DNA of 64,000 nt, taken from Chryseobacterium sp. 39-10. Its GTDB lineage: Bacteria; Bacteroidota; Bacteroidia; Flavobacteriales; Weeksellaceae. Below the pieces are notes generated by a model, which searched no databases, was not told the DNA's origin, and worked only from the letters and a program-made list of their open reading frames with translations. The DNA lies in assembly GCA_001898255.1 (NCBI GenBank), contig MKTK01000010.1, positions 95,896-159,895 on the forward strand, read 5' to 3'. Below are positions 26,212 through 29,594 of this stretch, piece after piece; within the stretch, counting starts at the first letter, position 1; each line of letters begins with the position of its first letter. Position numbers and translations under genes: made by a program.

Positions 26212-27585
26212 ATGCAGAAACTTCGATTTTCGCGATATTTCAAAGTTATTTTTATACTCCTCGATATCATCGTCATCGCAGGAGTTTTTCTATATTTCTT
26301 TTTAAAAAACAACGAGTTTAAATACGACCATGATATTTGGGAACAAAACATGCTGTCCTTGGCTCTGCTGGGCTTTTTTTGGATTCTTTTAAGCGGCAGA
26401 ACGCGGCTATACTCCATTCCTCGTAACTTAACGTACACCATTTATCTGGAACGTCTGGTGACGCACATTTTCATCTTTATTTTTGGCGTTGTATTGTTGG
26501 CCAAAGTGAGCAACAACAGCTTTCTGAAAGAAGATCGGTTTATGATTGCGCTCAGCTTATTGTTGCTTTTGTTTATACTAAAATCTTTGCTCTTCTTTAC
26601 GCTTAAATATGTCAGAACTTTGGGAATTAACCACCGAAATGTCATGTTTTTGCGCGAAGATTCTTCCACTGAAATATTGAGAAATATCCTGAACGAAAGG
26701 AAAGATTATGGTTTTAAAATTTTTGATTATCCTGACGAAAAGAAAATTGATTTCGAGAAACTGACCCTATTTTGGGAAGAAAATGGCATCCACACGATTT
26801 ACCTATCGAACGAAGCTGTCTCATTACCAAAAAATGAGGAACGGGAACTTTTTCGGCTTGCCGATTTGCACAAGATTAAAATATCGCTCGTTCCCAGCAT
26901 CCTGAAAAATAACTTTTTCCAGTACGACATTGCATACATTGAGACTCAACCTATTTTGGTGCGTGCCAAATTTCCTTTAGATTTTCTTACCAATGCTGTT
27001 CTCAAGAGAACCTTCGACATCCTCTTTTCCATCGCCGTTTTAGCAGGTGTTTGCAGCTGGCTCTTTCCTATCATCGCTTTGCTGATTATGATTGACAGTA
27101 GAGGTTCGGTTTTCTTCCTTCAAAAAAGGTATGGCTACCATGACCAGGTTTTCAAATGTTTCAAATTCAGAACGATGTATGTGAACAGTGATGCCGCGAA
27201 TAAAACTACCGAACACAACGACAAACGCATCACACCATTAGGAAAATTTCTGCGAAAAACCAGTATTGATGAACTTCCTCAATTCATCAATGTGCTGATA
27301 GGTGAAATGTCGGTGGTGGGCCCAAGACCTCACATGCTTCTGGTGGACGATTTCTATAAACCAAAAATCGGAAGATATTTTGTGCGAAGCATGGTAAAAC
27401 CTGGAATTACAGGGCTGGCTCAGGTAAACGGACTTCGGGGAGATTTTGGCGATATGAATATTGAAATGCACAAAAGAATTCTTGCGGATGCATTTTATGT
27501 AAAAAACTGGACCATCAGTTTGGATCTTGTCATCATCCTCAAAACCATTTTTCTGGTAGTGCGCGGCGATAAAAATGCCATATAA
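26212..27585 (+). CDS. Undecaprenyl-phosphate sugar phosphotransferase (WcaJ-like)
   Basis: KRTFDI, FKFRTM, DELPQFINV and VKPGITGLAQV motifs. Confidence 0.92.
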   Translation: MQKLRFSRYFKVIFILLDIIVIAGVFLYFFLKNNEFKYDHDIWEQNMLSLALLGFFWILLSGRTRLYSIPRNLTYTIYLERLVTHIFIFIFGVVLLAKVSNNSFLKEDRFMIALSLLLLLFILKSLLFFTLKYVRTLGINHRNVMFLREDSSTEILRNILNERKDYGFKIFDYPDEKKIDFEKLTLFWEENGIHTIYLSNEAVSLPKNEERELFRLADLHKIKISLVPSILKNNFFQYDIAYIETQPILVRAKFPLDFLTNAVLKRTFDILFSIAVLAGVCSWLFPIIALLIMIDSRGSVFFLQKRYGYHDQVFKCFKFRTMYVNSDAANKTTEHNDKRITPLGKFLRKTSIDELPQFINVLIGEMSVVGPRPHMLLVDDFYKPKIGRYFVRSMVKPGITGLAQVNGLRGDFGDMNIEMHKRILADAFYVKNWTISLDLVIILKTIFLVVRGDKNAI

Positions 27586-27936
27586 AGCATAATGAAATGA
27601 CCTGATTCAGCGTGTTAAGAATGATTACTATCTGCTTTTCTCGGAGTTATGGCTTTAATTTCTCCTTATAATAATCCCAGATTTTTTGACGATTTTTAGC
27701 GGAATGATGCTTGTTGATTGAATTTTATTCACTCTTAGGATTTCCAAAAACTTTCCTGAAAATAAGAAATTTTGCCTATTATTTCACTGTCATACCCTAA
27801 AATAGGTTGACTTTTTTGGGTTAAAAATAAGGTTTAGCTTAACGATCTAAAAGTAGAAATTTTTTGACAATGACAGCATAAAGTAAGAAGTTTATGAGCA
27901 GCTTCGGCGAAATAGGCCAAATACTTCAACTTGCAA

Positions 27937-27970
27937 TTTCTCCCGCAATTTGCCAATACATGTTAGCAGA
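27937..27970 (-). repeat. attC-like half-site (copy 2)
   Basis: 32/34 identical to 28961-28994; on the minus strand it begins TCTGCTAAC 6 nt after the stop of 27977-28426. Confidence 0.8.
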
Positions 27971-27976
27971 TGGTTT

Positions 27977-28426
27977 TTAATGAATTTTAGAAAAATATCT
28001 TCTGATAATGTCAGTTTTTCCGTCATTGTCAACATCTTGAGATCTGTCTTCAAAAACCAATTCATTTTCTGTTAGTTTTGTTATAAAATAGGGATAATCC
28101 TGCTCATTTTCATACCAAAATTTCATATTGGCTTTGTCAAAAGTATAATTTCTTGAACTTACTTCTCCAGTTAATTGACAACTAGAACCAACTATTCCGT
28201 AGAAAGTTGATTTATGTACAGTTCCCAAAAATTCGTGAATTGATTTTTTATCACAATCACTCTTTTCAATTGTTTGAGTTTGATTAGTTGCGGACTTAAC
28301 GGCATCCACTTTTTGAAAACTCCATTTCCCAATTAAACTTGCCTCGATTTGCTGATTTCCATTTTCGTCACTTCTGCAAGAAGTGAAGATAAAAAACGCA
28401 GGTAAAATTATAAGTATTTTTTTCAT
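27977..28426 (-). CDS. Lipocalin-like lipoprotein (cassette cargo)
   Basis: Lipobox FTSC, LIGKW and ITKLTENELV motifs; AT-rich. Confidence 0.8.
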   Translation of the reverse strand: MKKILIILPAFFIFTSCRSDENGNQQIEASLIGKWSFQKVDAVKSATNQTQTIEKSDCDKKSIHEFLGTVHKSTFYGIVGSSCQLTGEVSSRNYTFDKANMKFWYENEQDYPYFITKLTENELVFEDRSQDVDNDGKTDIIRRYFSKIH

Positions 28427-28770
28427 TTTCCGACAGGTTCATTTTTAATATATGCAGGAAGTATAATTGCAATGGTAATTCCACCAACAATTAAAGGAAT
28501 TGTTTTCCCTGCACTAAATTTTAAAACTTTATTGATGCTATTTTTTTCGATTTGAATTTCTTTTCCTTCTTGATTTCCAATGATTGAATTGTCATCATTT
28601 CCTAAATATTCAAATTGTCTTATTTTATTTCCGTCTTTGGTTTGAATGATATATTTTGAATTTGTTTTCAAGACAGAGTAATCGTAGTTATTCTTGGAAC
28701 TGACTTTTGTGGAAACACATGCGTTTAAAAATAGAACACTGGAAAATAATATTAACGCTTTGATTTTCAT
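28423..28770 (-). CDS. Hypothetical lipoprotein with C-terminal TM helix (cassette cargo)
   Basis: Lipobox LNAC; ATGA overlap with the next gene. Confidence 0.78.
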   Translation of the reverse strand: MKIKALILFSSVLFLNACVSTKVSSKNNYDYSVLKTNSKYIIQTKDGNKIRQFEYLGNDDNSIIGNQEGKEIQIEKNSINKVLKFSAGKTIPLIVGGITIAIILPAYIKNEPVGK

Positions 28771-28796
28771 TTATTTGACTGATTCTTGAAAAGCTT

Positions 28797-28994
28797 TCTG
28801 CTAACGGAAAAAGTATTGGCGAAGTGTGGGTTTAATTTGAACGAATATTCAAGTTCATACCGAACGGAACCGATGCTTTTTTAATGAAACTAAGTTATCA
28901 AAAAAATGTGAAATTGAAAAATATTGGCGGCTAAATATTTCTAATTTTTTGATTCAACACTTTCTCCCGCATTTTGCCAATACATTTTAGCAGA
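28797..28994 (-). repeat. Full attC-like palindrome (198 bp)
   Basis: Terminal TCTGCTAAC/TTTAGCAGA boxes plus 18-bp arms 28813-28830 and 28966-28983. Confidence 0.8.
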
Positions 28995-29215
28995 AGGCGT
29001 CTTTTATTCTTGTGCTCCTTTTAGGCCAATTAATTCAAGATTTGGTGGTAGATAAACACAACTATACGAAAGTTTTCACACCTACAATGAGAATAACATG
29101 TATAACTTAATCCATTGTATATCAGTAAATAATAGTTATTTTCTCGATTCGCATTTTGTGTTTAACAGAAATAAAATGCCATATTTGTTTGGTAATAGTT
29201 AATCCGTTTTGCGCC

Positions 29216-29338
29216 ATGGTTTTTTCTCATCATGATTTCTCTTTTGGTACACATCATGCCAAAAACATTATTTTTTTTCGTTTTGCGTACGACACTACTT
29301 TAATTCAAGAGCTACGGAAAAGATGGTCTTATTACTAA
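29216..29338 (+). pseudogene. Putative N-terminal remnant of a Bacteroidota tyrosine recombinase
   Basis: MVFSHHDFSFGTHHAKNIIFFRFAYDTTLIQELRKRWSYY*. Similarity is from recall only; orientation is divergent from the cassette. Confidence 0.5.
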
Positions 29339-29594
29339 TTGAACTCTAAATCATCGTACTGAAATTATGGACCCCATTCGCACCCGGCATGCATCCTCTC
29401 TTTGAACCTTTAAAAAAAAATATAAATGGTATCAATGGTGAACCAAAGACCGGTAAAAGGTTATAAAAAAATAACATTCTGAAACCTTGACAAATTTTCT
29501 TTCTGCGTGATATTCTAAAAAAATTCTTCTGTTGAGTATGATAAAAATATCACTTAAAAAACACATCAAAAAATAAAAACACTAATTTAGCGGA

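Follow-up and report, generated by a model that had tools for sequence, protein, structure and literature searches.

Integrons are the textbook case of recombination on folded single-stranded DNA, and the I2 helix of the IntI integrase is regarded as the innovation that made this possible (Escudero et al., eLife 2020, PMC7790495). In sedentary chromosomal integrons, for example the Vibrio cholerae superintegron with its homogeneous VCR-type attC sites, attI lies next to a divergently transcribed integrase gene with the first cassette joined at the triplet. Each attC site is an imperfect palindrome of 57-141 nt bounded by R'' ..AAC and R' GTT.. triplets, with extrahelical bases in the L box and an unpaired central spacer that direct strand choice, and the R'' of a cassette is complementary to the core site at the start of the same cassette, which reflects a crossover inside R'. 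Integron surveys report the Bacteroidota as almost integron-free (PMC9024848), and the IntegronFinder 2 survey lists a single complete integron in Bacteroidetes. The nearest description in this phylum is rAID-1 of gut Bacteroidales (Ross et al. 2019, bioRxiv 10.1101/471110; 10.1101/2025.05.03.651265), in which a XerD-like tyrosine recombinase (at least 44% identical to BF9343_RS08045) is followed by two or more genes running in the same direction, in arrays of short co-oriented accessory genes with repetitive intergenic sequences that the authors call 'reminiscent of integrons'; an earlier remark noted XerC/D next to polyimmunity loci.

We examined a 64,000-nt window of Chryseobacterium sp. 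39-10 (assembly GCA_001898255.1, contig MKTK01000010.1, positions 95,896 to 159,895 of the forward strand), which is contig C10 of a 3.07-Mb, 41-contig assembly. It contains an imperfect palindrome of about 205 nt (Table 1) that we interpret, with fairly high confidence, as the attC-equivalent recombination site of an integron-like gene-cassette system of Flavobacteriales, whose recombinase has no IntI-specific insertion. The use of folded single-stranded DNA, the strand used and the exact cleavage point are inferred from sequence, without experiments or read data showing excision, circles or strand preference. A first-pass annotation of the sequence had proposed an attC-like site that recombines as a folded single strand, with a strand bias and a possibly inactivating change in one terminal box; the features it described are present and its interpretation is supported, with the qualification that the site is not a classical attC.

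Table 1. Coordinates of the palindrome and its surroundings in the 64,000-nt window.
Feature	Coordinates	Strand	Sequence	Remarks
Whole decayed mini-platform	27598..29539			Insertion relative to three congeners (G001, G019, G013), in which the end of the 457-aa gene (27586/27597) abuts the region upstream of mlaE (29539)
Flanking imperfect direct repeat	27568-27590 and 29505-29545		GATAAAAATGCCATATAAA and GATAAAAATATCACTTAAAA	Repeat of the last 20 nt or so of the 457-aa gene, which ends at 27585
Truncated copy of the element	27895..27973 (about)	+	GTTAGCAGATGG (right box, 27962-27973)	Keeps the right part of the inner region, the right arm (27942-27959), a 2-nt spacer and the right box; found by alignment, motif search and BLAST against the genome
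Cassette gene B	27977..28426	-		149-aa lipocalin-like lipoprotein; Pfam Lipocalin_4, E 1.1e-5; a 72%-identical cassette occurs in congener G005
Cassette gene A	28423..28770	-		115-aa small lipoprotein; only weak family matches
Left outer box	28793..28805	+	GCTTTCTGCTAAC	AAC triplet at 28803-28805; inferred crossover box, the R' equivalent read on the bottom strand; complementary to the right box of the half copy (GTTAGCAGA, with G·T at position 11); family consensus [variable]YAAC
Unpaired spacer, 7 nt	28806..28812	+	GGAAAAA	Conserved in all copies
Left arm of the 18-bp main stem	28813..28830	+	GTATTGGCGAAGTGTGGG	Followed by 135 nt of inner sequence
Inner hairpin	28869..28928	+		28869-28883 pairs with 28915-28928; RNAalifold columns 79-93/127-140; several pairs with double compensatory changes
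Right arm of the main stem	28966..28983	+	CCCGCATTTTGCCAATAC	
Spacer, 2 nt	28984-28985	+	AT	
Right outer box	28986..28998	+	TTTAGCAGAAGGC	The family's GTT triplet (consensus ..ATGTTR..) reads TTT (G-to-T at 28986)
Degenerate attI-like junction	29050..29079	+	AGATAAAC/ACAACTATACGAAAGTTTTCAC	Aligns with the block found 130-170 nt upstream of intact recombinase genes
Recombinase stub	29216..29338	+	MVFSHHDFSFGTHHAKNIIFFRFAYDTTLIQELRK (protein)	N-terminal 40 codons of the Xer/IntI-like recombinase, pointing away from the cassettes; matches the N-terminus of the intact 364-aa recombinase on contig C26; DNA 87% identical

The two arms give 15 Watson-Crick pairs plus 3 G·T on the + strand, which is antisense to the neighbouring genes, and the G·T positions become A·C on the - strand. 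A repeat search reports both inverted repeats, and the asymmetric 7-nt and 2-nt spacers are as first annotated. With RNA parameters the + strand folds at -61.8 kcal/mol (z -6.0, with 0 of 200 shuffles as good) and the - strand at -46.6 (z -3.0), whereas with DNA parameters the values are -29.8 (z -3.3) and -25.4 (z -2.6). The arm motif occurs 3 times in the window against 0.02 expected, including a truncated copy lying directly after the stop codon of cassette gene B.

The element is one member of a large family. BLAST finds 30-49 matches in the genome and a structural regular expression recovers 31 copies; hits that BLAST reported as left halves only are full elements with diverged right halves, or copies cut by contig ends. 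Most copies lie in same-orientation series 0.5-2.4 kb apart, on contigs C9 (eight copies), C12, C16, C25, C26, C39 and C13, with one or a few genes between them and many at contig ends, and in every array the intervening genes lie on the strand opposite to the + orientation of the element. The cassettes carry typical accessory genes, including a T9SS-secreted protein, a CPCC-domain protein and lipoproteins, and one cassette (C9:3593-6014) holds a two-gene restriction-modification-like pair, a GmrSD_N-HNH nuclease and an EcoRI-type adenine methyltransferase, so that cassettes of this system can hold complete defence modules. At C39:1109-6000 a CTnDOT/NBU-type Arm-domain integrase, followed by excisionase-like and primase-like genes and lacking an attI block, sits directly against the last site of an array (C39:785-968), and a mobile element seems to have integrated at or beside the array end.

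Alignment of 18 full copies gives an 18-bp main stem in which eight pairs show double compensatory changes, for example G-C to U-A three times and U-A to G-C twice, and an inner hairpin with six covarying pairs. Counted by cells, the main stem has 285 Watson-Crick, 38 G·T and 0 A·C, and two G·T pairs are invariant in 18 of 18 copies (GCGAAG against TTTTGC). Subfamilies with different arm sequences (GTATTTGCGAAGGGCGGG and GCATTGGCGAAGTGGCGG) keep both the pairing and the same two wobbles. With DNA parameters all 19 full copies fold better on the antisense strand, by 5.2 kcal/mol on average. The strong fold and covarying stems could also reflect a structured non-coding RNA, or a terminator or stabiliser hairpin of the cassette transcripts, but we consider this very unlikely. 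The only Rfam hit over gathering score in the window is a tRNA; in a local search at E up to 10 there is no match at E < 0.5, and the hits overlapping the element score 14-21 bits against gathering scores of 64-180. A promoter and terminator scan found no terminator-like site and nothing useful at the element. Sense transcripts would moreover carry A·C mismatches at the wobble positions, which argues against selection at the level of the mRNA, and an RNA role does not explain the complementarity of boxes across genes described below, although a secondary RNA-level effect is not excluded.

Interestingly, the 12-16 nt outside the conserved YAAC and GTTR are variable, and the right box of each copy is the reverse complement of the left box of the next. 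In 11 of 17 neighbouring pairs the 12 variable positions give 11 Watson-Crick pairs plus 1 G·T, whereas a copy's own two boxes average 6.4 Watson-Crick pairs and random pairs 5.8 ± 1.9; no permutation out of 20,000 reached the observed value (p < 5e-5). The single non-Watson-Crick position is always the same one, with G at position 11 of the right box opposite T in the left box, and is a third fixed G·T on the + strand. Where the base next to the triplet varies it follows the neighbour and not the copy's own box (GTTG on C9 6014 pairs with CAAC on C9 7578). In integrons this is the signature of a palindromic site that has been split by a crossover inside one outer box. It also contradicts a selfish palindromic repeat of the MITE, REP or BIME type spreading into intergenic regions on its own, which the many palindromic, intergenic copies breaking the assembly at contig ends might otherwise suggest; there are no target-site duplications, and the copies are strictly co-oriented with the genes, linked to a recombinase and attI, and absent from most of the chromosome. 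Two boxes 46 kb apart at the ends of contig C36 (reverse-strand positions 64 and 46052) are complementary at 10 Watson-Crick + 2 G·T of 12, reflecting either a very large bounded segment or chance similarity between common box types.

The intact relative of the window's recombinase stub lies at C26:78326-79420, divergent from its array, and encodes a 364-aa protein with Phage_int_SAM_4 and Phage_integrase domains. Its best NCBIfam models are XerA/'integron integrase', IntI, XerC and XerD, all below their cut-offs. It matches the IntI model TIGR02249 only at positions 3-179 and 241-315, with 19 aa standing in place of the about 61 at positions 180-240, and aligns to Vibrio IntI4 (2a3v) in two pieces that skip chain residues 214-247, which is the IntI-specific insertion. 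The AlphaFold model (pLDDT 81) has 2a3v as its best structural match, followed by XerA. The extra N-terminal domain of about 85 aa is confidently predicted at residues 16-69 as beta-beta-alpha-beta-beta-alpha and has no Pfam match; it may be an arm-type DNA-binding domain that reads the sequence-conserved inner part of the sites. Homologues number in the thousands, are about 355 aa long, and come from Epilithonimonas, Chryseobacterium, Empedobacter, Tenacibaculum, Winogradskyella, Psychroserpens and others. A second, higher-GC and more distant homologue (362 aa, with the same N-terminal extension) sits alone on the 2.5-kb contig C1 with no repeats beside it. A public MAG contig labelled 'uncultured Paludibacter sp.' (CALFXE010000265.1) is 100% identical to C26 over 17 kb, but the nearest relatives of its genes are Weeksellaceae (Epilithonimonas, Cloacibacterium), and the taxonomic label looks wrong.

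A conserved attI-like junction, [variable box]YAAC/AC..AAATATACGAAAGT (also written [box]YAAC/AC..AAATATACGAAAG; the slash marks the junction), lies 130-170 nt upstream of the recombinase gene in C26, Epilithonimonas bovis, a Cloacibacterium MAG, two Winogradskyella species and a Weeksellaceae MAG. The exact motif was found in only 4 of 301 sampled genomes of the order, so intact platforms of this type are sporadic and the pattern does not work as a census tool. If this junction is attI with the first cassette attached, the reverse complement of its variable box should close the first cassette at the end of an element. In 5 of 6 loci (C26, E. bovis, the Cloacibacterium MAG, the Weeksellaceae MAG and Winogradskyella litoriviva) the 10-mer occurs exactly once, each time directly after a right arm (..CCAATACnATGTTR..) and each time with G at position 11, delimiting first cassettes of 0.5-7.2 kb. 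The longest, at C26:79560-86800, carries about 8 genes including an AraC/TPR regulator and a 775-aa surface protein, yet is bounded by perfectly complementary boxes (GTTATATGCAgTGCT and AGCAtTGCATATAAC), and a 6.6-kb unit with the same boxes lies on C16. In C26, in congener G005 and in a further recombinase locus (L059) the first gene abuts attI through a left-type box with no core in between, which places the crossover in the AAC box of the + strand rather than in the right box, and the unit is therefore gene plus downstream site, as in integrons.

In gene-sense order each cassette reads G/TTR-box, gene(s), box-YAAC, a 2-3-nt spacer, an 18-bp arm, an inner hairpin, the other arm, a 7-nt spacer and G. 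The antisense strand folds into a long hairpin with a roughly 15-bp outer box stem that holds the AAC/GTT triplets, an asymmetric internal loop, the main stem and the inner hairpin, with one fixed wobble about a helical turn from the triplet and two in the main stem keeping this strand paired. We infer that the recombinase cuts at or next to AAC and would then exchange cassettes between sites and with attI. Winogradskyella and Psychroserpens arrays use 150-220-nt sites with unrelated arms (GTGTATGGTTAGTTGC against GCAATTAATTATACAC), yet show the same CAAC/GTTG box logic, three G·T on the same strand, and better folding of that strand in 11 of 12 copies.

An alternative is that the left half ([box]YAAC + 7 nt + GTATTGGCGAA) is an ordinary duplex Xer-type core site with two 11-bp arms and a 7-bp central region, with the hairpin potential incidental or accessory. 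The recombinase is Xer-like and lacks the I2 insertion, so a double-strand mechanism cannot be excluded; the left half-site has canonical arm-spacer-arm geometry, and attI shares [box]YAAC plus a spacer of about 7 nt. We nonetheless consider it unlikely, as a duplex site needs neither a right arm that covaries with the left over 135 nt, nor a right box complementary to the next copy's left box, nor fixed G·T asymmetry, and the 2-3-nt spacer of the right half does not fit a duplex core site. A classical attC served by a canonical IntI, to which the triplets, R''/R' logic, divergent integrase and attI would correspond, is contradicted for this genome, as no protein reaches the TIGR02249 cut-off (best 102 + 97 bits against 265), unless an IntI lies in an unassembled part (completeness 99%).

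The window's two-gene cassette has a 72%-identical homologue in G005, where it lies directly beside an attI-like block with no recombinase gene at that locus. Its boxes, GTTATCTGTGgTTTT and AAAATCACAGATAAC, differ from the window's GTTAGCAGA/TCTGCTAAC but are again complementary to each other with the G·T at position 11, and the boxes therefore co-evolve as a pair together with the cassette.

The window copy itself belongs to a decayed secondary platform, a 1.9-kb insertion specific to this genome, comparison with three congeners showing its absence there. The order is truncated site, two lipoprotein genes, full site, degenerate attI and recombinase stub. On the gene-sense strand the terminal box of the full site reads ...CTGCTAAA instead of ...TAAC, through a single G-to-T change relative to the sibling half copy, which in the fold puts a C·T mismatch next to the presumed cleavage point. 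This copy is off consensus, as first annotated, and is probably impaired and may be inert; if it acts at all it could be served only in trans by the intact recombinase on C26, which heads a live-looking array continuing over several small contigs. The direct repeat flanking the module looks like the attL/attR of a site-specific insertion into the 3' end of the 457-aa gene, suggesting that the mini-platform arrived on, or is the remnant of, a larger integrative element.

It is possible, although tentative, that Flavobacteriales, and probably Bacteroidota more widely including the rAID-type arrays, carry their own lineage of integrons, in which an IntI/XerA-related recombinase that never had, or has lost, the I2 helix would still recombine folded single-stranded hairpin sites, with strand choice coded by fixed G·T wobbles and the extra N-terminal domain perhaps reading the inner part of the site. 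This would be either a second invention of hairpin-cassette capture or the ancestral state of integrons. The system gives a direct experimental handle on how strand choice and hairpin recognition can be achieved, and would reveal a large pool of mobile accessory and defence genes that standard tools (the IntI HMM, the attC model with its size limit) would probably miss.

Compared with sedentary chromosomal integrons, the system shares a divergent tyrosine recombinase next to an attI, long arrays of promoterless-looking, co-oriented, mostly single-gene cassettes, imperfect palindromes bounded by ..AAC and GTT.. (although the full RYYYAAC/GTTRRRY consensus is matched only in part), complementarity between the box at the cassette start and that before its own site, site homogeneity within a genome, better folding of the bottom strand, defence and accessory cargo, and IntI4 bound to a folded attC as the nearest solved structure to the recombinase. 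It differs in having no I2 or additional domain but an N-terminal extension, and in sites of 150-205 nt (about 190-206 nt in this genome), longer than any described attC, with an outer box stem of about 15 bp rather than about 7 bp. Strand asymmetry is coded by fixed G·T wobbles and not by extrahelical bases; the 18-bp stem has no bulges.

The rAID-1 arrays share the phylum, a XerD-like recombinase, short co-oriented accessory genes and repetitive intergenic sequences. In C26, in three further loci (L049, L057 and L059) and in the window the cassettes are upstream of the recombinase and divergent, and the cargo is not visibly dominated by immunity genes. Within the literature searched we found no description of these Flavobacteriales arrays, nor of folded sites, box complementarity, attI or strand bias in rAID-1. 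Cytophagales homologues of the recombinase (38-40% identity) in Pontibacter populi (locus L105, 9800-16100) and Arundinibacter roseus (locus L096, 10800-15400) have arrays of short palindromic repeats of about 50-60 nt, or of 140 nt, lying downstream and in the same direction, which is the rAID-1 layout and hints at a wider family with both arrangements.

The window locus, and several arrays or solo cassettes in this genome and its congeners, resemble CALINs, clusters of attC sites lacking an integron integrase (Cury et al. 2016, PMC4889954), in having sites without a functional adjacent recombinase; CALINs are defined with the classical attC covariance model, and the sites described here exceed its usual size range. 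The pdif modules of Acinetobacter plasmids (PMC7399989) similarly associate a Xer-family recombinase with small gene modules bounded by inverted half-sites, but pdif sites are 28-bp duplex sites used by the housekeeping XerC/D, whereas here there is a dedicated recombinase and 150-200-nt covarying hairpins with cross-cassette box pairing.
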